From a virus, in IMG/VR virus record IMGVR_UViG_3300025152_000001: DNA of 48,454 nucleotides; one strand, 5' to 3'. How positions within the stretch are numbered: position 1 is the first letter of the stretch; the number at the start of each line of letters is the position of its first letter. Positions 1 through 48,454 of the stretch are shown here, in pieces. The notes beneath the pieces were generated by a model, which did no database searches, had not been told where the DNA came from, and was given only the letters and a program-made list of their open reading frames with translations. The position numbers and the translations under genes are program-made.

Positions 1-51
1 GCGGTTGCGACTTGAAGGGCATAACCCTGCCGACTACAATCGGTGGCTCTC
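1..51. repeat. Terminal direct repeat: bases 1-51 are identical to 48404-48454 (circular-assembly style overlap)
   Basis: Read directly: gcggttgcgacttgaagggcataaccctgccgactacaatcggtggctctc occurs at both window ends. It lies inside 60-bp tandem coding repeats. Confidence 0.9.
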
Positions 52-182
52 TCGACCTTGGCGGTTGCGACTTGAAGGGCATAACCCTGCCAACCACTAT
101 TGATGGCTCTCTCTACCTTAGCGGTTGCGACTTGAAGGGCATAACAATACCAAAAAGATTTAAAAACAAAATTATCAATTAA
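1..182 (+). CDS. 3' part of LRR-like tandem-repeat protein, paralog B (5' part at 48052..48454; continuous once the 51-bp overlap is merged)
   Basis: In-frame 20-aa units (..GCDLKGITLPTTIG GSLDLGGCDLKGITLPTTID GSLYLSGCDLKGITIPKRFKNKIIN), stop TAA 180-182. The C-terminus mirrors that of 45167..46060. Confidence 0.8.
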   Translation, partial: GCDLKGITLPTTIGGSLDLGGCDLKGITLPTTIDGSLYLSGCDLKGITIPKRFKNKIIN

Positions 183-5050: not shown

Positions 5051-5059
5051 GAGAATAAT

Positions 5060-7081: not shown

Positions 7082-7091
7082 AGGATAAAAT

Positions 7092-7358: not shown

Positions 7359-7518
7359 AATAACAATAGAACATATTGACGGTAATGTTGTGATACACGA
7401 TTTACTATGTGATAGAAAGATGTCTATTACGTTAGAACAGGCTCACGACCTAGCTGTGGGGATAGGATTTATGTTGCAGGATTTAGACCCAGACCAACAC
7501 CCGGAGGCAAAACTATGA
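7351..7518 (+). CDS. small hypothetical protein (55 aa)
   Basis: Not in the ORF track. ATG 7351 follows GGAGGTGAAAA, and the stop overlaps the ATG at 7515. It fills an otherwise empty gap. Confidence 0.45.
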   Translation: MDKITIEHIDGNVVIHDLLCDRKMSITLEQAHDLAVGIGFMLQDLDPDQHPEAKL

Positions 7519-34506: not shown

Positions 34507-35325
34507 TTAAAGGTCGGGATGTTTGACGCTAGTCTTAGTCCCTTTAATCTCTGCCTTCTCCATAAATGCCTTATATGCTTCCTTGGTTAAACCAATTTTG
34601 TCCATAAAAGCCATTTCTTCTTTGGAGAGGCTTATTTCTTTCCCCTTCACAGGTACTACATTGGAACCTGCTACATCAGAAGTTGTGGGGATAATTTCCC
34701 TGCGTTTCTTTTCTTCCTCTCTTCCTAAATCCATAGCAACGTTTATCATATCTCCCTTTTTTGCTTCTATAAAGTTAGAGTATACAAGTCTGCGTTCTCT
34801 GGGTGTAAGAACCTTATTGAATCCAATCTGTGAGGCGTAGGTATCTAAAGCATAAGCCATTTCACCGTAGGAACCGTACATCTTTTGCAGAACAGGGTTG
34901 GACTCATAATCCGACCTAAGAGAAGATTCCATATTCTGGGCTTCAATGTTATTTAACTGTTGTTCTACAGCAGACATTCTAGGGTTCACTCTTTTATCAA
35001 TGACCCCGTTAGGATTGGTGAATATCTCATCAGTGTCGCCACCGCCCTGTTGTACAGGTGCGGGTGCCGAAAACCGTGATTCCAAATCTCTAACTTTCCT
35101 TTCCAGTTCTTCTCTCTTCTGCCTTTCTACATTCCTCTGTCCTATCACCTCATTGAGTCTTGAGGTGGGTACATTTCCCCGTTCAGCATCTTGGCTACTC
35201 CCTTTATCGTCTGGAGAAGACGTGCCTTTTGCTGGTTCGGTGGTTCCCTTGTTATCAGTTGTCGAAGCTGATTCGCTACCGGGTTTCTCTGTAGCATCTG
35301 TTTTTACGACTGGGATATTCTCCAT
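34507..35325 (-). CDS. scaffolding protein candidate (272 aa)
   Basis: Highly charged, helix-prone, low-complexity N-terminus. Located between the portal and capsid genes. Confidence 0.55.
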   Translation of the reverse strand: MENIPVVKTDATEKPGSESASTTDNKGTTEPAKGTSSPDDKGSSQDAERGNVPTSRLNEVIGQRNVERQKREELERKVRDLESRFSAPAPVQQGGGDTDEIFTNPNGVIDKRVNPRMSAVEQQLNNIEAQNMESSLRSDYESNPVLQKMYGSYGEMAYALDTYASQIGFNKVLTPRERRLVYSNFIEAKKGDMINVAMDLGREEEKKRREIIPTTSDVAGSNVVPVKGKEISLSKEEMAFMDKIGLTKEAYKAFMEKAEIKGTKTSVKHPDL

Positions 35326-35415
35326 ATTACCTCCACAGTTTTACGCCCTGTTAGGCTATCATTACAATAACAATAGTACAGTTGTTCTATGAAAATTATG
35401 TCAAAGAACCCTACA

Positions 35416-35691
35416 CTATTGTTTATTTTCTTCTTCTAGTTTCTTTAGTATTTCTTCTGGCATTTCTAATACCTGTTCTAATGTTCTTATCTGTGTTGCC
35501 AATTCTACACTCTTTATAGTGAAAGCTATTGGGTCTTTAGTGTTCTCTATATTTCTAGGAAGAGCCGCTAACTTGCCTTTATAGTTAAGAAGCTCCTCTA
35601 TAATAGACCGTTCAATAACCTTCCAGCCTTCGCTATCGTGAAACTGTAAATATATTTCAGACATTGACCACCGCCTGTATTTCTGATTCAT
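35416..35691 (-). CDS. hypothetical protein (91 aa)
   Basis: ORF coupled to the upstream GroES-like gene. Confidence 0.5.
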   Translation of the reverse strand: MNQKYRRWSMSEIYLQFHDSEGWKVIERSIIEELLNYKGKLAALPRNIENTKDPIAFTIKSVELATQIRTLEQVLEMPEEILKKLEEENKQ

Positions 35692-35914
35692 CTATTACTA
35701 AGTACTCAACGTTATCCTTCTTTAACTTCCTACCAGAATAACCACTTATCACTATCTTACTTCCTTTCTCTACGGATTTAACACTCTCTCCGCATTTCAT
35801 CACTTCTGCTATCTTTGTTTCGGTTCTTCTCTTTCTGGTTTTCAACAAAACTATCTTACTGTCCTTGGGGCATACCTTGACCAGAACCTTGCTGCATAGC
35901 GGGATTATTTCCAC
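35657..35914 (-). CDS. GroES/Cpn10-like co-chaperonin (85 aa, GTG start)
   Basis: GTG at 35914 follows AAGGAGAACAAG. (M)EIIPLCSKVLVKV..KIVLL..IAEVMKCGE..VEKGSKIVISGYSG..DNVEYLVIDESEIQAVV aligns by eye with E. coli GroES MNIRPLHDRVIVK..GIVL..GEVLAVGNG..VKVGDIVIFNDGYG..DNEEVLIMSESDILAIV. Confidence 0.6.
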   Translation of the reverse strand: MEIIPLCSKVLVKVCPKDSKIVLLKTRKRRTETKIAEVMKCGESVKSVEKGSKIVISGYSGRKLKKDNVEYLVIDESEIQAVVNV

Positions 35915-37883
35915 CTTGTTCTCCTTGCCCAGCCATAGCAAGTTGCTGTTCACCGGGACTTAGTTTTGACTGTTGCATAATTTGTGTTGCGGCAGACTTA
36001 AGTTCGCCCTCTATTTTCGCCATTACTGTCTGCTCTAGCGACTGCAATAATTCTTCGTGATTAGGAACCAATCTTTCCATTTGAGATTTATCATACTTCC
36101 TGAACAACTGTCTTGTGTTCTCTATTAGGGTTCTAAGCTGTGCAGGTGCAAACTGTGCCAACACACTAGGCGGTTGAGAGAATATCGGACTCTTTAACAA
36201 CATATCATAAAGGAATAACTCATCCTGTTTTTCCGCATCCTTTGAACCAGCCATAGATAATCCATTCAACACATATTGGAACTTTCCATTTTGTAGAACA
36301 TCTCTATCTAATTTCTTGATAACATAAGAATTGGTCTTATAGTCCCAAATACGATAATCCAGTTCCTTATCCCCGTGCTGTGCAAAGCCAGACACTATCA
36401 TCTTGGCTCTTTTCTCCATCATAGAATTAAATCTATAAATGAATATCTTAACCCTCAAAGAACTCTGGGCTATCAACATACTAGTTTTCTTGCCAGAAGC
36501 CCTAGGGTCAGAACTATCGGTGTTCCCACCATAAGCAGGACTTATACCAGCTCTTGTATTCTCAAACCCTATAATCTTATTTAATAGGGGAAGGGAGTTA
36601 TAATCTACGGTTCCCAAATTCAACATAGTTAAATCTGTTTCGTTATCAACATCAACTATCATACCCGGCTTAACATATCCGTTTGATGTCTTTATCTTCG
36701 TTCCCTTAACCCGCTTTAGAACTTTATTAACACACAAATTCCAGTTGTCTAATGTCTGGTTGTTTATCGCCTCTGCCTCATACTGCAAGGGTTTCAATAT
36801 TGTCGTTAAAGACGTACCATACCACTTCCCCGGTACTGGTATCATTGAACCAGATATCGCAGGTCTACCACCGTGGAATGTCTGTAAATGAGAACACCTT
36901 AAAAATGTTCCAGAACTGTATTCAAATACTAAGTATACATCCTTGCGTTCTCCAGTCTTATCTAAATCGTATTTACCGTATAAACAGATAAAAGGAAGTG
37001 CAGAAGGATTATCTCCAGAAAGATTTGCTATTTCATTTACCTGTTCTGTCCCCGCATCTCTACTATCTGTCGGAGAAACCTTATCCAACTCATCTAAATT
37101 CTTGTAATAGTTGGGAGTATAGAAGTTCTTTTCTTTAGCATCTTCCTTGGTTTTCCAGTCCACAAACGCAATAAAAGGAACCTTGTCTACATCATCTACT
37201 GCCCCGACAGGAACTATAACATCTTCCATTGCATAAACAACAGTTTTGGGTTTAACATATTCGTCATATTCTTTTACAAGGTTATATCCAAACGAAGTCT
37301 TGGCTCCAAATGCACCCGCAACTTTATCCGCTACACCTGCAACCGCACCAACAACTCCACCTTTCTTTTCCCATTTAAGTCTGGGCTTATCGCACAATTC
37401 CATTGTCTGCAACATAACACAGGTATCATCGTGAACAAATCTGTGTACTAACTTATCTATAGTTTTAAATTCGTCAGGGTCTAATTCTAACCTAGCATTA
37501 ATAAAGTCCTCAACATCTTCTTCGTGTTGCATTGAATATTCGTCAAGACCGTTTACATTATATATTCCGTTAGGGTTCTGGTATCTATCCATAACATTTT
37601 CAAATACAGTGTCGTTAAGTTCGGCAGCCATTGGCAAGGGGGTATTTGTCGCACCAGCCCAAGGCTCCGACTTAGAAGGTCTTATATTGTTTAGTAAGTC
37701 ATAATTCTCTTGCCACTCTGCTTCCTTGTCTTTCCTATGTTCTTTTGAATCAGATATTTGTTTCCTGAAATATTCAACTATCTCTTTCTGTCTTTCTTTG
37801 CTTAATGTGATGTCCTGTCCGTAAATAAATTTTGTGTCTATCGGACTTTCTGGCTGAACTATTTTCTCTGTTTTCTTTTCCAC
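35856..37883 (-). CDS. portal protein
   Basis: 675 aa. First large gene after terL/HNH, GTG start after GAGGT, Gln/Gly-rich C-terminal tail. The call rests on size and synteny. Confidence 0.7.
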   Translation of the reverse strand: MEKKTEKIVQPESPIDTKFIYGQDITLSKERQKEIVEYFRKQISDSKEHRKDKEAEWQENYDLLNNIRPSKSEPWAGATNTPLPMAAELNDTVFENVMDRYQNPNGIYNVNGLDEYSMQHEEDVEDFINARLELDPDEFKTIDKLVHRFVHDDTCVMLQTMELCDKPRLKWEKKGGVVGAVAGVADKVAGAFGAKTSFGYNLVKEYDEYVKPKTVVYAMEDVIVPVGAVDDVDKVPFIAFVDWKTKEDAKEKNFYTPNYYKNLDELDKVSPTDSRDAGTEQVNEIANLSGDNPSALPFICLYGKYDLDKTGERKDVYLVFEYSSGTFLRCSHLQTFHGGRPAISGSMIPVPGKWYGTSLTTILKPLQYEAEAINNQTLDNWNLCVNKVLKRVKGTKIKTSNGYVKPGMIVDVDNETDLTMLNLGTVDYNSLPLLNKIIGFENTRAGISPAYGGNTDSSDPRASGKKTSMLIAQSSLRVKIFIYRFNSMMEKRAKMIVSGFAQHGDKELDYRIWDYKTNSYVIKKLDRDVLQNGKFQYVLNGLSMAGSKDAEKQDELFLYDMLLKSPIFSQPPSVLAQFAPAQLRTLIENTRQLFRKYDKSQMERLVPNHEELLQSLEQTVMAKIEGELKSAATQIMQQSKLSPGEQQLAMAGQGEQGGNNPAMQQGSGQGMPQGQ

Positions 37884-38006
37884 TTAATACCTCGCCATTG
37901 TCATTTTTCTCTTCATAGATAACATAGGGTTTGTACGACCCTTTCTCTTGGTGTATGATTTTATTTTCTGTCTTCTACGCATCAGACTAGACTTTGTTTT
38001 TTTCAT
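37884..38006 (-). CDS. possible highly basic 40-aa peptide
   Basis: ATG 38006 after AGAGGT. The product MKKTKSSLMRRRQKIKSYTKRKGRTNPMLSMKRKMTMARY has 17 K/R in 40 aa, and its stop abuts the portal GTG. Confidence 0.3.
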   Translation of the reverse strand: MKKTKSSLMRRRQKIKSYTKRKGRTNPMLSMKRKMTMARY

Positions 38007-38754
38007 TTTTACCTCTTGACTTTTTTGGTATTTTATCGTGACATTTCTTACACAGTGTAATACCATTTGAAATATCCCACAAGGGGGAATATGTTATTGC
38101 CGCCTCAAACCTATCCAATAATGGCATATATCTAAACGCTTCTTCTTTTAGTATCTGAAACGCAACTTTATGGTGAGCCTCTAGGTCTCGTCTGCTAAAG
38201 GAATTGCAGTGTTGACAGGTAAAACTATCTCTTATGAATACCGACTGTCTCCACTCTTTATACTTCGTGCTATCTCTTATTAGTTTATTGATTGGCGTAA
38301 CCCCGCCACGCCACATAGGGTTTCCAGAACCACGTTGTTTCATACCTAGTTTTTTTAAATGTTTCCTTTGCATTTCAAGTCTCTCTGGTGTAAATTTTTT
38401 ATGACTCATGCAACTATTTGGTACACACTTAACAGAACAATACCTTCCCAGTCCTTTTTTTATTAAAGATGGTACAACTATTCTTTCTTTTCCACAAGTC
38501 TGACACTTTTTTACAACACCAGTGATTCTACTTTTATTTCTACAGTCAATTGAACAATATTTACTATGTCCTTTTTTTATTCTATATGGTATTGTTATTA
38601 TTTCTTTACCACAAAACAAACATTGTCTTGTTATTTTTCTAGTCTTGCTCTTTCCCCAGCATGCACTTGAGCAATATTTAGACCCTTCTTTTCTGTTGCT
38701 GGATGGCTTTGTATTGAAAATCTTGCCACATATTGGACAAGTCTTGCTTATCAC
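37987..38754 (-). CDS. HNH endonuclease with three N-terminal zinc-ribbon repeats
   Basis: 255 aa. Three repeats of CxxCGK-x(15-17)-(K/R)YCSxxC, then CQHCNS..LEAHHKV...NGITLCKKCHDKI (H-N-H). GTG start with a weak SD. Confidence 0.8.
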   Translation of the reverse strand: MISKTCPICGKIFNTKPSSNRKEGSKYCSSACWGKSKTRKITRQCLFCGKEIITIPYRIKKGHSKYCSIDCRNKSRITGVVKKCQTCGKERIVVPSLIKKGLGRYCSVKCVPNSCMSHKKFTPERLEMQRKHLKKLGMKQRGSGNPMWRGGVTPINKLIRDSTKYKEWRQSVFIRDSFTCQHCNSFSRRDLEAHHKVAFQILKEEAFRYMPLLDRFEAAITYSPLWDISNGITLCKKCHDKIPKKSRGKNEKNKV

Positions 38755-38800
38755 AATATACTGGCAATAAACAGCATCAGACTGTTTCTTTTGGCTTTCA

Positions 38801-38923
38801 TTATTTAACCCTCTCTAGTTTTCTACCAGAACATAGTTTAATACCTTTCTGTTTAGGTTTAGGGGTGTAATTGTAACACTCTTTTATTTTACATTCCCCA
38901 CTACCGTTACAAATAAGTTTCAT
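38801..38923 (-). CDS. possible small Cys-rich protein (40 aa)
   Basis: Not in the ORF track. ATG 38923 follows the terL stop and GGAG. Product MKLICNGSGECKIKECYNYTPKPKQKGIKLCSGRKLERVK. Confidence 0.3.
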   Translation of the reverse strand: MKLICNGSGECKIKECYNYTPKPKQKGIKLCSGRKLERVK

Positions 38924-38932
38924 AAAATCTCC

Positions 38933-40426
38933 CTAGTACAAACCAAATTTTCCGCTTCTATATGGAGTATCTCCTGAAATAAATTCTGGGATATGTTCAA
39001 CCTTTTGTCGCATTAAATATCTCCAAGCATCCATAAAATGGTCACGTTTCTTCTTTTGCTTTTGTCTTGGGTCAATATCTCTTTTGTTTGAACTGTCGTC
39101 CCAGACCGTGTGTTCCACTTGGTATATAAACTCTTTTAAATCATCAAAGACAAAGAACTTGTGAATATCTATTTCTTTTCCAGTTTCTCTGTCTGTTCCG
39201 ACTTCGCCTTTTAGAGCCATAGAACAACAATGATAACCACTTTCTAAATCCTTAATAGCATTTCTTACTGGTATACCTTGGTCTCTAAATAATTGAGCTG
39301 TTGTTTTCCCAGATGTTCTTTCCTGTGCATTTGCCGAAGTATCAATTACCGTGTATAGAATGTTCATTCCTTCGGATAATCGAAGTATAACTTTCGCCGC
39401 TTCCGCTATTGTTGCTGTTGGCTTAGAAACATATTCTTTAACTAAAAAACTGTCATTATCTGGACTTACCGCCAACCACAAACAGTAAATTGATGTAGCT
39501 GGGTGAGGGTCTAAAGCCCGCACAACAGTCCATTTCTCATCTATATATTTCGTATTAGGTTTTACTAAATGTACCTTTCTATTCCACAACGGGTACAACA
39601 CTCCGCTCTTACTTGTGAACTCTCCAAACAATCTTGACCTTTCGTCAGGGGTTCCCTTGAAAGACCGTTCTAAATTCTTAACCACTTCCGCAGAAGAATA
39701 TTCGTTATCGTAAATCGAAGCCGTTATCACTTCCACGTCATCTGCATCTGGGTCTTGGTTCATCCAAGGCTCATACAATCTTTCATACATAAATGACTTA
39801 CCCAAAAGAGGGGTCATAGTAAATATTATGTCTAGTGGTTCGTTAGCGTGTTGCCTTGCTAAACACTCATCATAAATATCTTCTGATGGTTCTTCATCGA
39901 ACGCAATTAATCTTTTTCTAGTGCCTTGGAATTTGATTCTGCCACTGTCAACTGACTTAAATCCTACGGTAGAACCATTCTTCATCTCTAGTATTCGGTC
40001 TGCTTCGTTCCATTTCTTTATTTCGTCTAATGGGAATAATTCCTTAATTTTCTTTTCTGCTACTCCCTTACTAGTGGGATAATCTACTGATACAACCCAA
40101 ACATCACAAGGTATTTTAATATCGTTTCTATAGGGGTGTTTACCACTTACAAAATAGTAAACTTCTGCAGCCATGCTAAAAGTTTTCCCACAGCCGTTCC
40201 CGCCAAAGAAAACCCTTTTACGCTTTTGGCTCTTGTGGAACTGCAACTGCTTCTGGTGCGGGACATAGTAATCTATCTTCCTTGTTGTCTTGTAATCCTC
40301 CAACGTCAGAAGGTCTTGGTATATCTGCTTCAACTCGTCCTTCGACAGTGTTTTTAGGACGTCCATTATTTCTAAGTTCGTTAAATTTAGCAGTGAGGAG
40401 CGAGAATACACGTTCGATAATGTCAT
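38933..40426 (-). CDS. terL: terminase large subunit
   Basis: 497 aa. Walker A FFGGNGCGKTF, Walker B LIAFDEEP, nuclease-domain motifs ALDPHP, IDTSANA and DHFMDAWRYL. Confidence 0.9.
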   Translation of the reverse strand: MTLSNVYSRSSLLNLTNLEIMDVLKTLSKDELKQIYQDLLTLEDYKTTRKIDYYVPHQKQLQFHKSQKRKRVFFGGNGCGKTFSMAAEVYYFVSGKHPYRNDIKIPCDVWVVSVDYPTSKGVAEKKIKELFPLDEIKKWNEADRILEMKNGSTVGFKSVDSGRIKFQGTRKRLIAFDEEPSEDIYDECLARQHANEPLDIIFTMTPLLGKSFMYERLYEPWMNQDPDADDVEVITASIYDNEYSSAEVVKNLERSFKGTPDERSRLFGEFTSKSGVLYPLWNRKVHLVKPNTKYIDEKWTVVRALDPHPATSIYCLWLAVSPDNDSFLVKEYVSKPTATIAEAAKVILRLSEGMNILYTVIDTSANAQERTSGKTTAQLFRDQGIPVRNAIKDLESGYHCCSMALKGEVGTDRETGKEIDIHKFFVFDDLKEFIYQVEHTVWDDSSNKRDIDPRQKQKKKRDHFMDAWRYLMRQKVEHIPEFISGDTPYRSGKFGLY

Positions 40427-40694
40427 TTGCCGAGAGTCCTTCCGATGGGTCTTTGGTCTCTATTTTGTCGGGTATTACGGTTCTTGATACATACAGAGAA
40501 GCATTTTGTCTTATCTTCTCATCTGATGATGTCATATCTTTCTTTAAATTACCAAGAGCGAGTTTGTAGAGTTTCATCATACCCGCTTGGGCTTTATTAC
40601 TTGATTCCTCGTCTACTACTGTCTTGCTCTTCTTTCGTCCGGCTCCTTTTCGGAACCCCCCCTGTTTAACCTCTAATACATTTTCTTCTGCCAC
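40218..40694 (-). CDS. terS: terminase small subunit candidate (158 aa, GTG start)
   Basis: Directly upstream of terL, AGAGGA SD, basic N-terminus GGFRKGAGRKKSK. The last 209 nt overlap terL out of frame. Confidence 0.45.
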   Translation of the reverse strand: MAEENVLEVKQGGFRKGAGRKKSKTVVDEESSNKAQAGMMKLYKLALGNLKKDMTSSDEKIRQNASLYVSRTVIPDKIETKDPSEGLSANDIIERVFSLLTAKFNELRNNGRPKNTVEGRVEADIPRPSDVGGLQDNKEDRLLCPAPEAVAVPQEPKA

Positions 40695-40766
40695 TTTATC
40701 CTCTTTCGAGTGCTAATTTTCGTTGGGGAGTCTCAATCCTATATGGATAGCTCCCCTAGTAGTTAC

Positions 40767-40964
40767 CTAAGTAACTTGCCCGAGAACGCTCGGTAATTTA
40801 TCTTCAAAGATGTTCTTTCCTTCATAATTCATTTCTTCCTGAATATCCACAACACACCTTGCACAAATAACATCTACGGCAGTTGAAGATACCTTAGTGT
40901 CCTTACCACACATATTGCAGGGTATATGCTTATCTTCTTTACTGTCAGGTGTTTTTTCCCTCAT
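40767..40964 (-). CDS. small zinc-ribbon protein (65 aa), predicted leaderless
   Basis: Internal ATG (M20 of ORF 40767..41021) lies 6 nt after a perfect -10 hexamer. CNMCG...CARC motif. Confidence 0.45.
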   Translation of the reverse strand: MREKTPDSKEDKHIPCNMCGKDTKVSSTAVDVICARCVVDIQEEMNYEGKNIFEDKLPSVLGQVT

Positions 40965-40970
40965 ATATAT

Positions 40971-40999
40971 ATTATACACATTTTTTCGCACTTTGTCAA
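40971..40999 (-). promoter_or_regulatory. perfect consensus sigma70/sigmaA promoter for the minus (structural) arm
   Basis: Minus strand TTGACA (40999-40994), N17, TATAAT (40976-40971). The ATG at 40964 sits at the predicted +1. Confidence 0.7.
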
Positions 41000-41104
41000 T
41001 AGATAACAGAACGGTTTTCAAAACGGCTCTGTTGAGCTTATTCTATCAGTGTTTTGTTTTTGTGTTTTTCGTGATTTTGGGTGGAACGCCTATAAGCAGA
41101 AAAA

Positions 41105-41825
41105 TTATCCACAGTCTAATCCACAGATTTTATGTGGTATTATTTTCGATAGTTCCCTATTATGGAATTACCGCAAATTTTACTACAGGAAAAATGGTTG
41201 AAATTTATCTATATATAGAAGCTGTATTAAATAATGCACACGATATACCACTGATACATAATGAGTTAAGCCTGAAATGACCTAAAAAGTGTTGCCACAA
41301 TCGATTCTGGCGAGTTAAAAACGTGTTATAGTACTCTGATACCAAAACTTAAAAAAAACCCACTAGAACGAAACGTGGTGCGATTTAGAGGCATTGTGGT
41401 TGCTGGTCACGACCATCATTTTCACTTAACCAGATAAATCTCATATTTATTGTTTTCCTGTTTTTCAGAAATCCTTTAAAAAGGGGAAAGGAAGGGAGTA
41501 AGGAAAAAGGGGACTATAGGGGATAAAGGTTAAAAGAGGGTTGGTATGGGGTTAAAGTTCTTAAAAGCTTTTATATTAAAAGCACTTTATAAATATAACT
41601 ACTACTTTCTAAGGTAACAAGCCCGAATTTGACAGGAAAACTGGTAGAGAAACTGAACCGCAATCCACAACCTAATCCACAGATTTAGAAATATTATGTT
41701 AACTAAAATTGCTTATGTTTATTGATAACTGGTTTTCCATAATAGTCAACCTGTGGATAACTATTGTCAAATTCATTAAACACATTATAACATAAGACGA
41801 TTTAAAATCTATAAATTGTGGATAA
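41105..41825. promoter_or_regulatory. DnaA-box cluster (candidate replication origin / DnaA-regulated control region)
   Basis: Perfect TTATCCACA at 41105-41113. Perfect TGTGGATAA at 41752-41760 and 41817-41825. One-mismatch TAATCCACA at 41117-41125 and 41673-41681. CAATCCACA at 41661-41669. Confidence 0.6.
41478..41556 (+). repeat. purine-only-like G-run tract
   Basis: aaaaaggggaaaggaagggagtaaggaaaaaggggactataggggataaaggttaaaagagggttggtatgggg is almost pyrimidine-free and has six runs of GGG or GGGG. Confidence 0.7.
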
Positions 41826-42421
41826 TTATATCCCCGTTTTCTTACTGTGCAAAACATCCCTGACCTGTAAGGACTTACATAATAAACTTAACACTTCCAC
41901 CAAATGGTACCGTTTTCCTGCAGCTTCGGACAAACCCTCGGACACTAAGTAATCATAATTTCGCTACCCTTCTATACCAACTATCTTACACTTTCTTTGA
42001 TAATTACCCCATTTTTGATAACTTGATTATAAAATCAAATTTTACAGCCAGTTATTAATAAAAGCCCTTATCCTATCAGCACTTATCGGACAATTTGGAA
42101 TCAGCTGTGGGGGTGGGGAGTCATATTACACTCTCGGGTGGCATTGGGCTTCTCGGACAAGTGCAATAGCATAGTAGCACATAGCATAAGAATTGTATAC
42201 ATAAGCTATACGTTATAATGCTTTTGCTTATACCCTTGTTTGTTTATTGCTGGATATACCCGGGTAGTAAGTGTTGTGTCGCACGCTAGTACAAACAGCA
42301 TAATATGCCTGATACATAAGCACTTAGCAAAAACAGTATATTGCATTATTGCCTGTTATTGATGGTATTGGTATATATAAAACGGCTTTAACACCTACTA
42401 ACTGCACCTATACATACATCA

Positions 42422-42540
42422 TTGCTTTGTTGCTTTGTTCTTTTTTGTTCTTATATTGTAATATATACTTACTTTATATGCTTTATTATAAACTACTTCA
42501 GTTATTAGATAGTTTCATTTGAAACCTTTTACTTTCTGTA
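42422..42540. promoter_or_regulatory. very AT-rich tract with tandem TTGCTTTG units (DNA-unwinding-element candidate)
   Basis: ttgctttg ttgctttg ttctttttt gttctt, followed by about 100 nt of roughly four-fifths A+T, inside the non-coding region. Confidence 0.35.
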
Positions 42541-43096
42541 GTATTATCACATTGGATTGTAATAAGATATAGTTTAAGCCCCTTTTCCGACTATCTCATA
42601 CTATACCCTTTAACCCCTTTTTGAGTTTATTCCTTTTGCCTTTACCGGTTACTATTGCATACTATATACACTAGCTAAAAGCCAAAGCTAAAGACAAAAA
42701 AGCTATAAAGATTAGTATTGTTAGTATATAGGTAAGTTTTTAGGGTTTTAACCTCGAAATATTCTTTTCGTTTACACTTCTCAAAACCTTCTCACGTTGC
42801 CTTCTGTTGAGTTTAAACACCACTAACCATAGTTATATGCCATGGCATTATTGCCTATGCTTAAAATCGATTGTAGTGATATTATACCCTATATGGTACG
42901 ATATACCACTTACTACCTGTTATTGCTGGTTAGTATCACCTTTTATATATCTATTGTACCTTTTAGGGTATAGTCCTGTTTTATTATTCCTGTAACTTTT
43001 TTCTATTTATGGCGTAATTGCCGTAATTAAAATAATTATTTTATGCTATTATGTCCCTGATACATAAGCATTTACAAACTATCTAAAAAATAACTA

Positions 43097-43124
43097 TTGA
43101 CAAATTAAATATCTATGTTATACT
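43097..43124 (+). promoter_or_regulatory. sigma70/sigmaA promoter for the plus arm (TTGACA-N16-TATACT, TGT extended -10)
   Basis: ttgaca 43097-43102, tatact 43119-43124, 42 nt upstream of the ATG at 43166 with a GGAGGG SD. Confidence 0.65.
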
Positions 43125-43165
43125 ATTAATAGAGCAGATTAGACAGCTCAACGGAGGGAAAGAAA

Positions 43166-43357
43166 ATGGAAAGATACCAGCATATAAGGGAAAAACTAGA
43201 ACCACTGAAAGTGTATACATATAGAGAAATAGTAAACATAATATCTCCAACACAATCAACAACAGCGGAATATATAATGGACAATATGAGGGCGTGCGGT
43301 ATGCTGTCTTATGCTTCTGACAGCACGGGGCATACGGGATTTAAATTAGTACAATAG
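43166..43357 (+). CDS. small protein (63 aa), possible winged-helix DNA-binding regulator
   Basis: First gene of the plus arm. Helix-turn-helix-like segment YTYREIVNIISPTQSTTAEYIMDNMRACGML. The assignment is tentative. Confidence 0.5.
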   Translation: MERYQHIREKLEPLKVYTYREIVNIISPTQSTTAEYIMDNMRACGMLSYASDSTGHTGFKLVQ

Positions 43358-43368
43358 GAGAAAAAACT

Positions 43369-43524
43369 ATGAATATATGGTTAAGAAATGATGTCCCACA
43401 AGCAGACCAAAGATGTATAGACTGTAAAAACTACAGAACTTGCAGAATAACGCTTTGCGACGGGAGACGCCAAACAAACGGACAGTATTACAATTTTAGT
43501 TGTTTTATACATAAAACAAAGTAA
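43369..43524 (+). CDS. small Cys-rich protein (51 aa)
   Basis: Not in the ORF track. ATG 43369 after TAGGAG. CIDC...C...C pattern. Confidence 0.4.
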   Translation: MNIWLRNDVPQADQRCIDCKNYRTCRITLCDGRRQTNGQYYNFSCFIHKTK

Positions 43525-43526
43525 GA

Positions 43527-43614
43527 ACACGGTAAGCCCTTACTCAATAAGAGAAGGGCAAGGAATAAAAACACCGTAAGCCCTGATTATCTTAGATAAC
43601 AGGCAGGGAATAAA
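43527..43614 (+). repeat. tandem pair of ~44-nt units, each forming a 9-bp bulged hairpin
   Basis: Units 43527-43569 and 43571-43614 share ACAC(G/C)GTAAGCCCT...AGGGAATAAA. Hairpins at 43536-43559 and 43582-43603. Confidence 0.6.
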
Positions 43615-43623
43615 GGCGGTTCT

Positions 43624-44151
43624 ATGAATTACATTGTAAAAGGTAAAAGCATCACGGTTGAAGCGGTAAGGGCGGAATTGATAAAGCGGTACAATTCCGA
43701 ATATAACACAGCGGAAAAAGTAAAAATCAATAAGGAAATAAAGGAATATTTGTATATTCCTAAAGATAATACAGAAAAAGAAGCATTTAACAAAGCATTT
43801 GAACAAGATATAATGGAAGCAAGTAATAACCTTGTATTACTCAATGAAATGTTGTTAAATGACAAAGCGGTATATCTTAAATGCGAAAAAGAGCCCAGGG
43901 GAAATTTAGATACGGGAAAACATTACTACTCAATTTTTGTTGTTAAAAATGAAGAGCTTTATAAAATATGGTTAAGGGCTTTTATTGTCCTTGTCGGCGG
44001 TTGTATCAATAATAAAGACAGGAATATGAGTAAATATATATTTGATAGCGGTGCAATAGGAATGAGCAGGGCTCTCGATGCAACAGATAATATTTTTAAC
44101 CTGCTAAAGTCTTTAGGCGGGTGCTACGCTCAAATAACAAGGTTTATCTAA
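43624..44151 (+). CDS. hypothetical protein (175 aa)
   Basis: Long ORF with protein-like composition. No family recognised. Confidence 0.6.
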   Translation: MNYIVKGKSITVEAVRAELIKRYNSEYNTAEKVKINKEIKEYLYIPKDNTEKEAFNKAFEQDIMEASNNLVLLNEMLLNDKAVYLKCEKEPRGNLDTGKHYYSIFVVKNEELYKIWLRAFIVLVGGCINNKDRNMSKYIFDSGAIGMSRALDATDNIFNLLKSLGGCYAQITRFI

Positions 44152-44208
44152 ACTAAACCATTATTAACCTTAATAAATAAAGTGATAATGCAAATGGAGG
44201 GTAAAAGG

Positions 44209-44382
44209 ATGTTTTGTAAAATATGCGGTAAACAGTTTTTATTAAGAGGTCGGAAATGGATAACGTTAATGTGTACTGGGTGCGGGGCAGAATATGAGAA
44301 GGGAAAAAACGAACCCTTTAACATTAATCAACATAATGAACAATATAAAAACAAAAAGGCGGTGCATAATGTCAAAGTTTAA
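44209..44382 (+). CDS. small zinc-ribbon protein (57 aa)
   Basis: Internal ATG after GGAGGGTAAAAGG. CKICG...CTGCG. Confidence 0.5.
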   Translation: MFCKICGKQFLLRGRKWITLMCTGCGAEYEKGKNEPFNINQHNEQYKNKKAVHNVKV

Positions 44383-44551
44383 AAATCTTAAAATAGGTAC
44401 AAAGGTTAGAACAAAAGACAAAGAATACAATATAGCATATATCACGAATATAACACAGCGGAAGGGTTGGTATTGGTACGATATACGGATAGTTGATGGA
44501 GGCGGTGAAAAAACCTGCTACCCTGAAAATATATTGGAGGTGCTAAAATGA
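44369..44551 (+). CDS. hypothetical protein (60 aa)
   Basis: Internal ATG of ORF 44294..44551. Overlaps the upstream end by 14 nt. Confidence 0.45.
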   Translation: MSKFKNLKIGTKVRTKDKEYNIAYITNITQRKGWYWYDIRIVDGGGEKTCYPENILEVLK

Positions 44552-45042
44552 AACTAAAGTTTAGTAATACTGAAAACGTGTTGTTTAATGGTAAAGAGAA
44601 TATAGTATCCTGTCAATACTGGTTTACAAAGTGTTATGATACAACAAAGGGATTAAAGCATAAAGAGAAAAGTATATCTGAAAAGATTAAAAATAAAGAA
44701 AGTTTCGCTTATAATGTATCACAAAAAGAGTTTTTTGCTTGTCCAGATTTTACACAAATAATTGAAAAGGCGGAAAAAAGTAATATTGAATTTACGAAAA
44801 TAAGCGGGCTTGTATTTAACGATATGTATATTTACAAAGGGACTATTGACAGCTACATTGTATATACAGCCTTAAGCAAAGAATATGTTGATATGTTGGA
44901 GTTTCCTGAAGTTTTATTTACCACTAATACAACATCTTTAATGGTTTACAAGGCAAAAGATAGGGCGGATAAATGGAATATTTTAGGTGGTCTAATGCCT
45001 ATTGAATTCAACATAAATGACTTAAAAAAGGAGATAATATAA
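44548..45042 (+). CDS. hypothetical protein (164 aa)
   Basis: ATGA coupling. GGAGG SD. Confidence 0.6.
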   Translation: MKLKFSNTENVLFNGKENIVSCQYWFTKCYDTTKGLKHKEKSISEKIKNKESFAYNVSQKEFFACPDFTQIIEKAEKSNIEFTKISGLVFNDMYIYKGTIDSYIVYTALSKEYVDMLEFPEVLFTTNTTSLMVYKAKDRADKWNILGGLMPIEFNINDLKKEII

Positions 45043-45166
45043 TGATATATAGTTGGCGGTACTTTGTCAACAAAAGGCAACAAAGGGCTTTAAATGAATT
45101 AAAATGGTGCTTATTATTCACGATTACAGCCGGGGTTATGGCAATGATTTTAAGGGGGTATTAAAT

Positions 45167-46060
45167 ATGTGCAGATTTATTTCATTCTTTCACAAACCAG
45201 ATGCAGACGGTAAGCCAGAGATTGCAGTATGGGATTTAAACTCTCACGGGGAAACAGAGGAACATTTGAAACTAAATACTAAGTTGTGGCAAGAAGCTCA
45301 TTACGAGCCAAATGGAAACCTTGAATTGAGATATAATGATAATTTTAAGTTAGATAAAAAAGAATATGAGGAAATATTTAAAAATAGATTTGTCAATTTT
45401 TCTTACTTTCTAAACCATTGTTTGAAACACTGGAATAACAGCGGCTATCTCGACCTTAGAGGTTGCGACTTGAAGGGAATAACCCTGCCGACTACAATCG
45501 GTGGCTATCTCGACCTTAGAGGTTGCGACCTGAAGGGCATAACCCTGCCAACCACTATTGATGGCTCTCTCTACCTTAGCGGTTGCGACTTAAAGGGCAT
45601 AACCCTGCCGACTACAATCGGTGGCTTTCTCTACCTTAGCGGTTGCGACTTGAAGGGCATAACCCTGCCGACTACAATCGGTGGCTCTCTCTACCTTAGC
45701 GGTTGCGACTTGAAGGGCATAACCCTGCCGACTACAATCGGTGGCTATCTCGACCTTAGAGGTTGCGACCTGAAGGGCATAACCCTGCCAACCACTATTG
45801 ATGGCTCTCTCTACCTTAGCGGTTGCGACTTGAAGGGCATAACCCTGCCAACCACTATTGATGGCTTTCTCTACCTTAGCGGTTGCGACTTGAAGGGCAT
45901 AACCCTGCCAACCACTATTGATGGCTCTCTCTACCTTAGCGGTTGCGACTTGAAGGGCATAACCCTGCCGACTACAATCGGTGGCTATCTCGACCTTAGC
46001 GGTTGCGACTTAAAGGGCTTAACTATACCAAAAAGATTTAAAAATAAGATTATAAAGTAA
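45167..46060 (+). CDS. LRR-like tandem-repeat protein, paralog A (about 92-aa N-terminal domain plus ten 20-aa units)
   Basis: ATG 45167 after AGGGGG gives the same MCRFISFFHKPDADGKPEIAVWDLNSHGETEEHLKLN.. start as paralog B. The 20-aa units G-x-L-x-L-x-G-C-D-L-K-G-I-T-L-P-T-T-I-(G/D) fit short bacterial-type LRRs. Confidence 0.8.
   Translation: MCRFISFFHKPDADGKPEIAVWDLNSHGETEEHLKLNTKLWQEAHYEPNGNLELRYNDNFKLDKKEYEEIFKNRFVNFSYFLNHCLKHWNNSGYLDLRGCDLKGITLPTTIGGYLDLRGCDLKGITLPTTIDGSLYLSGCDLKGITLPTTIGGFLYLSGCDLKGITLPTTIGGSLYLSGCDLKGITLPTTIGGYLDLRGCDLKGITLPTTIDGSLYLSGCDLKGITLPTTIDGFLYLSGCDLKGITLPTTIDGSLYLSGCDLKGITLPTTIGGYLDLSGCDLKGLTIPKRFKNKIIK
45443..46042 (+). repeat. ten in-frame 60-bp tandem repeats
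   Basis: Period exactly 60 nt. Units 2 and 6 are identical. Units 5 and 9 are identical to each other and to unit 1 of paralog B. The last unit diverges after about 35 nt. Confidence 0.9.
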
Positions 46061-46072
46061 AAAGGGGGAAAA

Positions 46073-46420
46073 ATGACAAAACAAGATTATTTAAACGATA
46101 TACAAATAGTAAAAAGGGATATTGAAACCGACAGGATAACATCAGAAGGGATTGACAGCACGATTGCACTTGTGGATGACTGGAAAAACCCCCTAATGGT
46201 GGGTTTCGATAAAATGGCTCATATCCTCACCACCTACGATTTTAAGCTACCGGAACGGTTAGAAGCTATAGAAGCCCTAAAGGGGGTGTGGTGGGTGGGT
46301 AAAGGGCTACCAGAAGGCAGGGAACGTATACAATACATCAAGGAACACAAAAAGGAAACATTAGAAGCATTAGAAAAGTTTAGAGGGTTTGTTAATGAAT
46401 ATTACAAGGGGGTAAGATGA
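46073..46420 (+). CDS. hypothetical protein (115 aa)
   Basis: GGGGGA SD. Confidence 0.6.
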   Translation: MTKQDYLNDIQIVKRDIETDRITSEGIDSTIALVDDWKNPLMVGFDKMAHILTTYDFKLPERLEAIEALKGVWWVGKGLPEGRERIQYIKEHKKETLEALEKFRGFVNEYYKGVR

Positions 46421-46668
46421 AAACTAAAAAAGAAATATATCAATGGTGGGTATCAAGAGGAGATATAGAAAACGAGGTTGACGATTTGACAATTCTTTGC
46501 AAAGAGTTAGACAAAAAACATTGCTATACAAACAGTACACGAAGAAAAGAAGTTATTGCAGGTAAAAATGTTGAAGTAAGACATATACAGATATGTAAAA
46601 GTGGTTGGAAATTTCCCCTTTATCTGGATTTTATTGACAATGAATGTGTTAGAATAGGAGGATTTTAA
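46417..46668 (+). CDS. hypothetical protein (83 aa)
   Basis: ATGA coupling. Confidence 0.55.
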   Translation: MKTKKEIYQWWVSRGDIENEVDDLTILCKELDKKHCYTNSTRRKEVIAGKNVEVRHIQICKSGWKFPLYLDFIDNECVRIGGF

Positions 46669-46830
46669 ATGAAAAAGAAAACCATAGAGATAGAAAAGAT
46701 AATTGATATTGAAGAACTAGAAAACACGGAAAGCATTTTAACCACCCAAAGAGATATTATCGGAGAGATAACAAGAGGATTAGAAGATGAGCAGGATTTT
46801 ATTAATTCCAATTTGTACGGGAGCTGTTAA
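46669..46830 (+). CDS. small acidic protein (53 aa)
   Basis: Not in the ORF track. ATG directly after the upstream TAA. GGAGGA SD. Confidence 0.4.
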   Translation: MKKKTIEIEKIIDIEELENTESILTTQRDIIGEITRGLEDEQDFINSNLYGSC

Positions 46831-46984
46831 TCTTATGACTAACATTTCAAGAACTATAATTACGAAGATTAAGAACAGTTGGTATCGGGTTATTAAGTCA
46901 GAAGGGTTATTGTTCGGCTGGGCCTGTGTTCTGTCCTTGCTGTTCGTTCTAAACCTTTTGCTACATACTAACTTTTTACATTAG
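46787..46984 (+). CDS. possible small membrane protein (65 aa)
   Basis: AGAGGA upstream and a hydrophobic C-terminus. It overlaps 46669..46830 by 44 nt, so it is uncertain. Confidence 0.3.
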   Translation: MSRILLIPICTGAVNLMTNISRTIITKIKNSWYRVIKSEGLLFGWACVLSLLFVLNLLLHTNFLH

Positions 46985-47132
46985 GGCGACTGCCCGATAT
47001 ATCACTGTATGATTTATGAAGCTTGTAGAAGATACCCATATCTATTATACACTTTTCAAACGTAAAGAAGTATGACCAATATCATACAGGAAAACACTTG
47101 ATTGTATAAGGGTAAATTGAAAGAAAATAAAG

Positions 47133-47152
47133 TAGTTAGTCTAGACTAACTA
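47133..47152. promoter_or_regulatory. perfect 20-bp palindrome (operator or hairpin candidate)
   Basis: tagttagtct/agactaacta is an exact inverted repeat with no spacer, in the non-coding gap 46985-47176. Confidence 0.5.
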
Positions 47153-47176
47153 ATATCACTAAAAAGGGGAGGTAAA

Positions 47177-47302
47177 ATGGGTAAAAAATATAACCACGGG
47201 AAAACAGATTTTAAGGCGGATTTTATGGTTAGTTTGGTGTCGGTGGGATTGTTTTTTGCAGTGATTGGTGCGATAGTGTTTGTGTTAAACACAGTAAAAT
47301 AG
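47177..47302 (+). CDS. small 1-TM peptide (41 aa)
   Basis: Not in the ORF track. GGGGAGG SD. TM segment MVSLVSVGLFFAVIGAIVFVL. Confidence 0.4.
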   Translation: MGKKYNHGKTDFKADFMVSLVSVGLFFAVIGAIVFVLNTVK

Positions 47303-47305
47303 TTG

Positions 47306-47334
47306 TTGACAAGTGGTAAAAATTATGGTACAAT
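47306..47334 (+). promoter_or_regulatory. sigma70/sigmaA promoter (TTGACA-N17-TACAAT, TGG extended -10)
   Basis: ttgaca 47306-47311, tacaat 47329-47334. Followed by AAGGAGGG and the ATG at 47360. Confidence 0.65.
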
Positions 47335-47359
47335 AAATTGAAAATTTAAGGAGGGTAAA

Positions 47360-47566
47360 ATGAGTGTACCCAAAGGAAAGTATTGCGAAAATAATAATTA
47401 TAAAACCTGCGAACATATGTCACTTGATACCACTGGTGCAAATAGTGTTTGTGCAAAATATGGAAATATTGGATTTGAAAGTGAATGGTATAGAAACCAG
47501 CCAAGAACAATCAAATGCAAGCAATGTCTAACGGAGGGAAAGGAAAATGAGCATAAACATAGATAA
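47360..47566 (+). CDS. hypothetical Cys-containing protein (68 aa)
   Basis: Strong SD. Six Cys, including KCKQC near the C-terminus. Confidence 0.55.
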   Translation: MSVPKGKYCENNNYKTCEHMSLDTTGANSVCAKYGNIGFESEWYRNQPRTIKCKQCLTEGKENEHKHR

Positions 47567-47599
47567 CATAAAGGATGGAAAACAACAAAAGGATAAAAA

Positions 47600-47821
47600 A
47601 TGAGTGAAAATAAGATAAGGGCGGAACGACAGGTCATTATTAAAGTTGAAGAATTAGAATGGAATCTATCACAGGGTAGAAACTATTATAATGTTACAGT
47701 ATGGAAAAAATATAAACACTCACCTACTGTTTTAAGATTTAACATTAGGCAAACGTTAAAAATGTTAGATGTGCTTTTGCCGAAACAACAACTCAAATCC
47801 TATCTAGGGGAGGAAAAGTGA
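47600..47821 (+). CDS. hypothetical protein (73 aa)
   Basis: AAGGA upstream. Protein-like composition. Confidence 0.5.
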   Translation: MSENKIRAERQVIIKVEELEWNLSQGRNYYNVTVWKKYKHSPTVLRFNIRQTLKMLDVLLPKQQLKSYLGEEK

Positions 47822-48048
47822 AAAAACACGATATAAGGACATTACGAGATATACTAGAAGTTGTTGACGATAAGAATATTGACTATTTCATTAAGGATTT
47901 TTCTGACTGGTTGTATATTTTAGTAATAGTTGCTAAGTTAGACAAGACACAAATAAAGGTAAACAATGCGGATATATTCACATGGATAGATGATAAGAAA
48001 AACAATGTTCACGTAAGTTTTTCTAAGAAAAAACAAGGGGAGGAATAA
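47818..48048 (+). CDS. hypothetical protein (76 aa, GTG start)
   Basis: GTGA coupling with the upstream stop. GGGGAGG SD. Confidence 0.5.
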   Translation: MKKHDIRTLRDILEVVDDKNIDYFIKDFSDWLYILVIVAKLDKTQIKVNNADIFTWIDDKKNNVHVSFSKKKQGEE

Positions 48049-48051
48049 CAA

Positions 48052-48454
48052 ATGTGCAGATTTATTTCATTTTTCCACAAACCAGATGCGGACGGTAAGC
48101 CAGAAATTGCCGTGTGGGATTTAAACTCTCACGGGGAAACAGAGGAACATTTAAAGCTAAATACTAAGTTATGGCAAGAAGCCCACTATGAACCAAATGG
48201 TAATCTTGAATTGAGATACAATGATAATTTTAAGTTAGACAAGCAAGAGTATGAGGAAATATTTAAAAATAGATTTATTAACTTCAATTACTTTTTAAAT
48301 TATTGTCTTAAACACTGGAATAAAAAAGGCTCTCTCTACCTTAGCGGTTGCGACTTGAAGGGCATAACCCTGCCGACTACAATCGGTGGCTCTCTCGACC
48401 TTGGCGGTTGCGACTTGAAGGGCATAACCCTGCCGACTACAATCGGTGGCTCTC
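48052..48454 (+). CDS. 5' part of LRR-like tandem-repeat protein, paralog B (continues at window start)
   Basis: GGGGAGG SD. The N-terminal domain is nearly identical to paralog A. 60-bp units start at 48328. There is no stop before the window end. Confidence 0.8.
   Translation, partial: MCRFISFFHKPDADGKPEIAVWDLNSHGETEEHLKLNTKLWQEAHYEPNGNLELRYNDNFKLDKQEYEEIFKNRFINFNYFLNYCLKHWNKKGSLYLSGCDLKGITLPTTIGGSLDLGGCDLKGITLPTTIGGS
48404..48454. repeat. second copy of the 51-bp terminal direct repeat
   Basis: Identical to bases 1-51. Confidence 0.9.

Follow-up and report, generated by a model that had tools for sequence, protein, structure and literature searches.

How a phage comes to encode a protein built from ten almost identical 20-residue units, and what such a protein might do, is the question raised by gene A of the viral record IMGVR_UViG_3300025152_000001, a 48,454-nucleotide stretch of DNA that we refer to as the window. 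A first-pass annotation, made from the sequence alone, had described a mosaic of two variable blocks within near-identical leucine-rich repeat (LRR) units, and had proposed a recombinationally diversifying binder with a host-interaction or anti-defence role. The main addition made here is the recognition of a large phage family with a new N-terminal domain, to which gene A and its paralogue, gene B, belong. The reading that we favour, and consider probable if by no great measure, is that these paralogous early genes would combine a head carrying Cys2 with an LRR-like target-recognition solenoid, the units of which are homogenised while differences at exposed residues are kept by selection. The features of the two genes are as follows.

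45152..45159, plus strand: Shine-Dalgarno sequence of gene A (aagggggt), read from the sequence, 7 nt upstream of the ATG at 45167.
45167..46060, plus strand: gene A, an open reading frame (ORF) with corrected start, encoding a 297-residue protein with an N-terminal Cys2 domain and ten LRR-like units (modelled with AlphaFold2).
45167..45442, plus strand: N-terminal 92-residue alpha/beta domain of gene A (near-invariant columns Met1-Cys2, Ser6 and His27; domain-only model).
45443..46042, plus strand: array A, ten 60-nt (20-residue) units, units 1-9 canonical (Tandem Repeats Finder; unit splitting).
45983-46042, plus strand: terminal unit 10 of array A, which diverges from unit position 36 onward.
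48053..48454, plus strand: 5' part of gene B, with the N-terminal domain at 48053-48327 and the first 2.1 units, running off the window end.
1..182, plus strand: 3' part of gene B, with the tail of one unit, the C-terminal tail and the stop codon TAA at 180-182, the same as the gene B end in L002, another assembly of this phage.
45-104, plus strand: array B unit SDG-D, within the 3' part of gene B.
105-164, plus strand: terminal unit of array B, within the 3' part of gene B.

The start of gene A was placed at ATG 45167 (MCRF...), which is preceded by a good Shine-Dalgarno sequence; gene B and all homologues also begin with MC. The longest ORF opens at ATG 45104 (MVLIIHDY...), and this start was rejected because homologues start MC... 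and the Shine-Dalgarno sequence precedes 45167. Database entries P0001, P0123, P0126 and P0127 carry 21 spurious N-terminal residues, which mask the obligatory Met-Cys start. The gene A product ends six residues past its last unit, and the complete gene B, present in L002, encodes 237 residues with seven units.

At 45443-46023, Tandem Repeats Finder reported a 60-nt unit in 9.7 copies that match at 91% and are free of indels, and it found the same repeat at the window ends (1-145 and 48328-48454). Splitting 45443-46042 into ten in-frame 60-nt units returned every unit listed in the first-pass annotation. For analysis of variable sites, the nine non-terminal units of gene A were pooled with the six canonical units of the complete gene B from L002 (n = 15). 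Twelve of the 60 nucleotide positions varied, and amino-acid changes were limited to codons 2 (TAT, TCT or TTT, encoding Y, S or F), 4 (GAC or TAC, D or Y), 6 (AGA, AGC or GGC, R, S or G) and 20 (GGT or GAT, G or D). Codons 10, 12 and 16-19 showed synonymous variation only. The 3' block has the two alleles claimed for it, the haplotypes CCGACTACAATCGGT and CCAACCACTATTGAT, which differ at five sites (48, 51, 54, 57 and 59), four of the differences being synonymous. These sites were fully linked in 15 of 15 units, and the probability that five random sites would lie within 12 nt is P = 0.003. All six combinations of 5' and 3' blocks were found (YDR, SYS and FYS at residues 2, 4 and 6, each with the G block and with the D block), and the same six unit types were recovered in L002 and L003, which are independent MEGAHIT k141 assemblies. 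The four-gamete test identified 24 incompatible site pairs and at least three recombination events. That a five-site 3' haplotype is found with three different 5' types calls for recombination or gene conversion between units. The mosaic is real and non-random, and recombination is supported as its evolutionary origin.

The 5' block had been described as a choice between two cassettes, and this did not hold, since its three codons vary independently and give seven triplets across A and B. The third form reported for paralogue B, SLDLG, is present, and the complete gene B copy in L002 additionally has SDS and YYG. Thus the proposal of shuffling between two old cassette types rather than point mutation stands for the 3' block, which carries a recombination signal, but not for the 5' block. 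Point mutation and selection under ongoing homogenisation explain the 5' block at least as well as cassettes do, because nucleotides 5, 10 and 18 also vary between the units, 98-100% identical elsewhere, of distant homologues. As for the dimorphic 3' block, it is not general, having been seen only in the window phage and one other long array, L012. The order of the variable residues along the arrays was indistinguishable from random (z = -1.65, 0.26 and 0.07). A structural alternation rule for these residues was rejected, adjacent-unit identity being equal to the permutation expectation, and the random order argues against any simple stacking or alternation rule.

Approximately 200 homologues share the 20-residue unit. 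In 81 of these proteins (340 units), positions 2, 4 and 6 had mean pairwise differences between units of the same protein of 0.57, 0.57 and 0.50, respectively, whereas none of positions 1, 3, 5 and 7-16 exceeded 0.18. Positions 11, 13, 14 and 17-19 were uniform within a protein and different between proteins, which is the signature of concerted evolution. The residue alphabets were small (S/Y/W at position 2; D/Y, rarely N/H, at position 4; S/R, rarely G, at position 6), and all 12 main triplets of the form (S/Y/W)(D/Y)(S/R) occurred. Of 15 IMG/VR arrays, 14 had amino-acid variation at codon 2, 13 at codon 4 and 12 at codon 6. The comparison with relatives that the first-pass annotation had suggested, there as a check for unit shuffling, showed variation at the same codons family-wide. 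The clearest case is locus L039 (OY782882.1, 1488272-1497402), in a 4.86-Mb Bacteroidales record titled 'chromosome: 1', which encodes a 383-residue homologue with 14 units: the 13 canonical units are identical except at nucleotides 5, 10 and 18, as in the window, with zero synonymous differences. In L011, a GC-rich homologue, units are identical save at codons 2 and 6, and L012 has an internal 18-unit array with its own two-allele 3' block (LPKE versus IPDK), found together with many 5' types. In most arrays there is a single 3' haplotype. An old cross-phage dimorphism at proline codon 16 (CCG/CCA) was considered and rejected for this reason, the variation at codon 16 coming mostly from terminal units.

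This pattern bears on whether the variable residues are simply surface positions that the structure tolerates, with no role in recognition, so that, in a repeat undergoing rapid homogenisation, neutral drift acts at the few codons free of constraint. The tiny alphabets, the members of which are all single-nucleotide steps apart, would be expected on such an account, and no ligand is known. However, the same three codons vary where the other 57 nt are identical, without any synonymous variation, and drift with homogenisation should erase such differences. The conservative or single-step alternatives E, A and V are essentially absent from position 4, and positions 11, 14, 17 and 18, which are exposed and differ between proteins, are nevertheless uniform within each protein. 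We consider neutral drift unlikely.

The L039 locus has a GC content of 38.5%, similar to that of the window, and its neighbours resemble, from residue patterns alone and with no family search run, a cI-like repressor, an SSB-like protein and a replication-initiator-like ORF. This suggests that L039 may be an integrated element, and that part of the family may have a Bacteroidota host range. On the minus strand at L039 4295-5125, antisense ORFs of 276 and 150 residues run through the array; these are by-products of its periodicity and could be mis-called as genes. Amongst GenBank phages, blastn with the region gave no match. Matches by tblastn in 103 Rheinheimera phage records and in Caulobacter phages were rejected as family members, being true A(D/N)LSG pentapeptide proteins, and the only real member among the phage matches was an unannotated ORF at the start of the EBPR podovirus 1 record (JF412294). 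Neither the junctions of genes A and B nor either 3' block haplotype was found by exact-pattern scans of IMG/VR, and a scan of JGI metagenomes for the gene A junction was likewise negative.

To which fold these units belong was addressed with an AlphaFold2 model built from a 36-sequence alignment (predicted local distance difference test score, pLDDT, 92.9; predicted template modelling score, pTM, 0.86), in which an alpha/beta domain (residues 1-92) precedes a regular solenoid, the latter as had been anticipated. The unit consensus, G-x-L-x-L-x-G-C-D-L-K-G-I-T-L-P-T-T-I-G/D, fits the core of tandem 20-30-residue LRR units, L-x-x-L-x-L-x-x-N/C-x-L, as I19-x-x-x-L3-x-L5-x-x-C8-x-L10, with one extra residue before the strand. 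The longest strand per unit assigned by DSSP in the model is L3-x4-L5-x6. Residues 2, 4 and 6 are predicted to lie on the sheet face, because they alternate with the buried leucines 3 and 5 of this strand (L3-S6); this agrees with the earlier placement of the variable residues on the x positions of the strand, curvature and exposure being inferred from the model. Residue 20 immediately precedes the Gly-Gly turn from which the chain enters the strand. Searched as a sequence profile, the family matched BspA-like and Leptospira LRR structures with E = 2.7e-9 to 2e-4, and the LRR structures 4fs7, 7yjw, 4u06 and 8z5u with E = 2.7e-9 to 1.6e-3; Pfam LRR_1 matched the whole protein at 9.8e-16, with no single stretch passing alone. 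The best superpositions found by Foldseek were with the LRR domains of IpaH and SspH1 and an LRR flagellar-motor protein (target-normalised template modelling (TM) scores of 0.37-0.52), and amongst the predicted viral structures of BFVD with LRR-annotated phage proteins (0.6-0.9). Both the TM-scores and the sequence profile are LRR-like and not pentapeptide-like, in support of the proposed LRR solenoid, and we read the repeat region as a probable short cysteine-ladder solenoid of LRR type.

The competing assignment is a pentapeptide-repeat (Rfr) beta-helix acting as a DNA mimic, which would accord with the automatic annotation of homologues as 'YjbI, pentapeptide repeats'. Twenty residues per turn equal four pentapeptides, Pfam Pentapeptide scores 5e-11, and there are weak NCBIfam Qnr/MfpA matches. 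The lowest Foldseek E-values against the PDB were also for pentapeptide-repeat proteins (HetL, MfpA, Qnr), together with designed beta1 solenoids, at target-normalised TM-scores of 0.34 or less and root-mean-square deviations (rmsd) of 9-15 Å. However, alignment to HetL, Np275/276, MfpA, Qnr and AlbG gave TM-scores of just 0.10-0.21 (query-normalised) or 0.15-0.30 (target-normalised) with rmsd of 10-15 Å, below those of the LRR domains and phage models, and the family profile, with E = 0.08-0.26 only against pentapeptide proteins, favoured LRR structures by 5-8 orders of magnitude. The NCBIfam matches reached about 20 bits against cut-offs of 125-480, and nothing in NCBIfam scored above cut-off. 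Consecutive A(D/N)LXX motifs at four per turn were not found: three of the four pentapeptides fit, and T-I-G-G-S has no central hydrophobic residue. The repeat domain is net neutral (18 acidic and 18 basic residues), unlike acidic DNA mimics, and the true A(D/N)LSG repeats of the Rheinheimera and Caulobacter phage proteins are clearly different. Taken with these points, a pentapeptide helix seems to us most improbable.

The N-terminal domain of about 92 residues had not been recognised in the first-pass annotation, and profile and sequence searches of Pfam and the PDB likewise gave no relative. There was no credible match in Pfam, PDB sequences or PDB folds, the best Foldseek PDB E-value being 0.55, although a domain-only model reached a pLDDT of 90.7. 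An exhaustive profile search placed the domain in 764 representative clusters (50% identity), 228 of them at E <= 1e-10. It begins at residue 1 in nearly all clusters, with an MC start in 123 of the top 140. Met1-Cys2, Ser6 and His27 were invariant in 29 sequences down to 12-20% identity, and these residues together with Thr30 and Arg55 were near-invariant across 140 further representatives. The cysteine must directly follow the initiator Met, which suggests that it is possibly an N-terminal nucleophile. The domain's C-terminal partners include the 20-residue LRR, a 21-residue 'LTSA' LRR, other LRR types, ankyrin repeats (13 of 140), FNIP and DUF4116. To judge from this arrangement, a small conserved head joined to a swappable repeat module follows the logic of effector-plus-targeting or adaptor proteins.

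Two further architectures were noted alongside this family. A second recurrent head of approximately 110-130 residues occurs on the same 20-residue repeats (P0011, P0015, P0028, P0041 and others), with the motif WMIR-x-DNDG...W-x-P-x-G-x-W...C-G-G-G-L-H-G. Proteins of the P0007 type have a domain C-terminal to the repeats which, by eye, is like the one that follows true pentapeptides in Rheinheimera phage Barba gp045 and Caulobacter phage RW gp016, with a shared conserved G-C-R/Q motif (L005 1519-2196; L006 1378-2448). This hints that LRR-like and pentapeptide arrays may be interchangeable in another phage protein architecture.

We compared the window with other assemblies of the same phage in a protein collection (L002, L003, L004, L007, L008 and fragmentary contigs) to establish how far the ten-unit array can be relied upon. 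L002 (MEGAHIT k141, 48,424 bp) chains to the window via exact 40-mers across all flanks and has five units in A and seven in B; L003 (48,244 bp) has six and three. Gene A thus has ten units in the window, five in L002, six in L003 and two in L007, and fragmentary contigs gave two units for A and four, one and one for B. With terminal overlap removed, 47,563 nt plus 60 nt per unit fits all three full-length contigs, namely the window (A10, B4), L002 (A5, B7, 141-nt overlap) and L003 (A6, B3, 141-nt overlap). The suffix and prefix of the window share 51 nt, and joining the ends there gives a four-unit B, the same as the L008 form; the idea that these 51 nt are an assembler k-mer was rejected, the overlap being simply the repeat in register. 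All short forms are in-register deletions of the longest form, and no variant contains a new unit type. Each short form has a junction string of 43-115 nt that is missing from the long form, for example the 61-mer TTCTCTACCTTAGCGGTTGCGACTTGAAGGGCATAACCCTGCCGACTACAATCGGTGGCTA, the junction of an FYS-G unit with the terminal unit. The short forms may be either real deletion variants or collapsed paths kept from small-k graph stages. In L004 (ERZ4902888 NODE_3809, 5820 bp; SPAdes, 2x coverage), a fusion at 4042-4578 joins gene A's 5' end to the last part of gene B, without the 2.9 kb between the paralogues (window ~46.06-48.05 kb); this fusion is either a natural deletion by inter-paralogue recombination or a low-coverage assembly chimera.

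These differences raise the possibility that the assembler threaded a chimeric path through a collapsed repeat graph, so that no single real molecule carries the mosaic or, at the least, its ten-unit order. The same genome, with exactly chained flanks, yields different unit counts in different assemblies, all explicable as in-register deletions without new types. The window itself breaks inside array B, and of the 27 family loci in IMG/VR, 22 reach the end of a contig, while two contigs have both ends in the array. Illumina assemblies of highly conserved WD40 repeat arrays are known to be unreliable (PMC12222747). However, the 5' and 3' blocks together span 55 nt and lie 6-18 nt from the next unit's block, such that any read or k-mer of at least 59 nt phases them. 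The recurrence of all six unit types in independent MEGAHIT k141 assemblies, the two-block mosaic of the internal 18-unit array in another phage, and the same variable codons in an array within the chromosome-titled 4.86-Mb record also argue against an artefact, as do the junction strings of the short variants, in that either form could be real. Such an artefact is in our view rather improbable. Unit types are robust, because both blocks of a unit lie within 55 nt and independent assemblies yield all six; the number of units and their order depend on the assembly.

The same comparison does not establish the suggested ongoing recombinational diversification in the phage population: the count differences are all in-register deletions without new unit types, and are confounded by short-read collapse. 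A stronger form of this idea would have the phage life cycle include active, programmed diversification, by site-directed mutagenesis or frequent cassette conversion among units and between A and B, to make binder variants. In its favour, unit counts differ among five samples of one study, L004 presents an A/B fusion lacking the 2.9 kb between paralogues, and the identical three nucleotides vary in distant homologues. Against this, differing counts and a fusion in a 2x SPAdes contig are what repeat collapse yields, and no variant brings a new unit type. Nor were the marks of a diversity-generating retroelement found. The variable sites include G/T, C/T and A/G and are not adenine-specific, and Tandem Repeats Finder detected no template repeat outside the two arrays. 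No reverse transcriptase was recorded among the Pfam matches of the called genes of L002 (window 35163-48442 and 53-7477), the rest of the window having been only partly scanned. We therefore judge programmed diversification very unlikely.

According to the reading that we favour, genes A and B would be paralogous early genes of a tailed phage of about 47.6 kb, each encoding a cytoplasmic two-part protein in which the 92-residue alpha/beta domain would serve as a conserved effector head and the solenoid of 20-residue LRR-like units as a target-recognition module. Unequal crossing-over and gene conversion between the 60-nt units would keep their DNA near-identical by concerted evolution, while selection would keep the differences at the three exposed strand residues (S/Y/F at position 2, D/Y at 4 and R/S/G at 6). 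In the window phage, selection would also keep the dimorphic 3' block, that is, G or D at residue 20 with four hitch-hiking synonymous changes, and exchange between units would re-assort the 5' and 3' blocks to give the mosaic. As a working model, the repeat face may bind a host component on which the head then acts. Here and in other phages, the gene lies among small early genes near recombination and replication genes (RecT/exo, ERF/YqaJ, HNH, DnaB), and from this early-gene position a host-interaction or anti-defence role, as first proposed, appears plausible. The array anatomy, the predicted solenoid, the placing of its variable residues, the recombination signal and the recurrence of the pattern across the family are direct results, whereas selection for binding, a catalytic or effector role of the head, and a role in host takeover or anti-defence are all inferred.

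Several points weigh against this reading. The terms 'binding surface' and 'effector head' are drawn from the architecture, and the curvature of the solenoid is putative, as would be any spatial closeness of Cys2, Ser6 and His27. The restricted residue alphabets could reflect structural tolerance and not ligand recognition. Because most differences in the 3' block of this phage are synonymous, to explain its persistence by selection on G/D alone is ad hoc. The order and number of the units in the window are provisional, other assemblies of the same genome giving other counts. Finally, the best Foldseek E-values, as distinct from TM-scores, are to pentapeptide-repeat proteins, with Pfam Pentapeptide at 5e-11 on the whole protein.

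A more far-reaching version, which we regard as decidedly speculative and improbable, would make these proteins programmable binders. A periodic or extended target would be read element by element, one per unit, via a three-residue code, (S/Y/W)(D/Y)(S/R), of 12 main 'letters'; the array would deliver to it an effector domain of new fold with an N-terminal cysteine, and recombination among units and between the paralogues would retarget the protein with changes of host. If true, this would be a phage counterpart of TAL effectors or of F-box/LRR adaptors.

The closest parallels to the favoured two-part protein are found in several unrelated systems. The highly internally conserved (HIC) repeats of fungal NOD-like receptors, or NLRs (Podospora het-d/het-e WD40), likewise consist of units that concerted evolution maintains near-identical in their DNA; hypervariability is limited to a few sites, predicted to lie on the binding face, the units vary in number and combination, and short-read assemblies are unreliable (PMC12222747). 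Such repeats have at least ~85% DNA identity and vary at few binding-face sites, and array A has 91% matches with changes only at codons 2, 4, 6 and 20. However, the fungal proteins are eukaryotic immune receptors in which WD40 propellers (or ANK/TPR repeats) accompany a NACHT domain, whereas the window protein is phage-encoded, with 20-residue LRR-like units and, in place of NACHT or NB-ARC upstream of the repeats, a 92-residue Cys2 head with no Pfam match. In the cell-surface LRR locus of Flavobacterium psychrophilum and the IP22/FNIP-type LRRs of Dictyostelium purpureum, which were discovered by repeat mining, hypervariability is likewise confined to a few positions that models place on a single face of the solenoid; the number of units varies, and there are indications of recombination (Altae-Tran et al. 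2020, PMC10392669). The D. purpureum LRRs have the same Y/D/H/N preference (PMC10392669). These are secreted or cell-surface bacterial or amoebal proteins with units of about 22 residues, unlike cytoplasmic phage early proteins, and they lack a Cys2 head.

By repeat class, the window protein is nearest to the 20-22-residue LRRs of IpaH, SspH and YopM and to the BspA/TpLRR-like LRR_5 proteins. These gave the best structural TM-scores and sequence-profile matches, and share with it a unit of about 20 residues, an L-x-L-x-x-C/N-x-L core, a ladder cysteine and the absence of convex-side helices. The window protein differs from them in having a different head, no secretion signal evident by eye, far more uniform units, and one extra residue between the preceding hydrophobic residue and the L-x-L strand. 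It also lacks the NEL ubiquitin-ligase domain of IpaH/SspH-type effectors, for which there was no Pfam match. TAL effectors, with their repeat-variable diresidues, likewise have near-identical units differing at a fixed few residues and arrays re-assorted by recombination, but theirs are 34-residue helical repeats that read DNA one base per unit, whereas the window protein is a predicted beta-solenoid whose family shares with a one-unit-one-element code only the sequence signature, a small combinatorial alphabet with all 12 main triplets. Lamprey variable lymphocyte receptors are LRR binders whose diversity comes from copying LRR cassettes into a gene. Their assembly is somatic, depends on AID-like deaminases and draws on flanking cassette libraries, and the sole possible donor in the window genome is the paralogue.

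The window is essentially one whole tailed-phage genome, circularly permuted, with both contig ends inside array B and a GC content of about 37%. Late genes lie on the minus strand (an SU10-type portal, large terminase, beta-helix tail protein and LPD38-domain protein), and early and replication genes on the plus strand (a DnaB-like helicase, RNA ligase and HNH endonuclease). The portal, terminase, DnaB and tail proteins confirm that the repeat protein is phage-encoded. No tRNA genes were found in the window. The N-terminus of the gene A product (MCRFISFFHKPDADG...) is by eye unlike a signal peptide, no signal-peptide predictor having been run, and all PHROGs matching gene A are of 'unknown function'. 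PADLOC gave no match for the window protein and three architecturally different relatives, its models being of defence systems and not anti-defence proteins.

Two other observations were made in the window. Between the late and early blocks, a stretch of about 2 kb (41000-43150) has a single ORF of at least 80 residues (40897-41280). It contains four copies of the motif CCTGATACATAAGCAYTTA (41244, 41851, 42300 and 43048) and a repeated element, ATAACTATTGACAAAT, that includes TTGACA (41757 and 43090); these repeated motifs may be early promoters, operators or an origin. At 9838-9881, a perfect 21-nt tandem duplication (AAGGTGTTTGTATGATGAACC, 2.1 copies) surrounds the junction of two plus-strand ORFs.

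TAL effectors, fungal NLR sensors and lamprey receptors are adaptable recognition proteins, and the hallmark of such proteins is a set of near-identical repeats in which a few surface residues vary. The 20-residue sub-family of about 200 homologues that includes the window gene shows this hallmark, and neither its head nor the family has a name or known function. Since the arrays systematically break or collapse in short-read phage assemblies, their real length and diversity are under-recorded in viral databases. Should the head prove to be an enzyme or adaptor whose target is chosen by the repeats, the family would be a new class of proteins with which phages manipulate their hosts, and would offer a compact scaffold for engineering binders.

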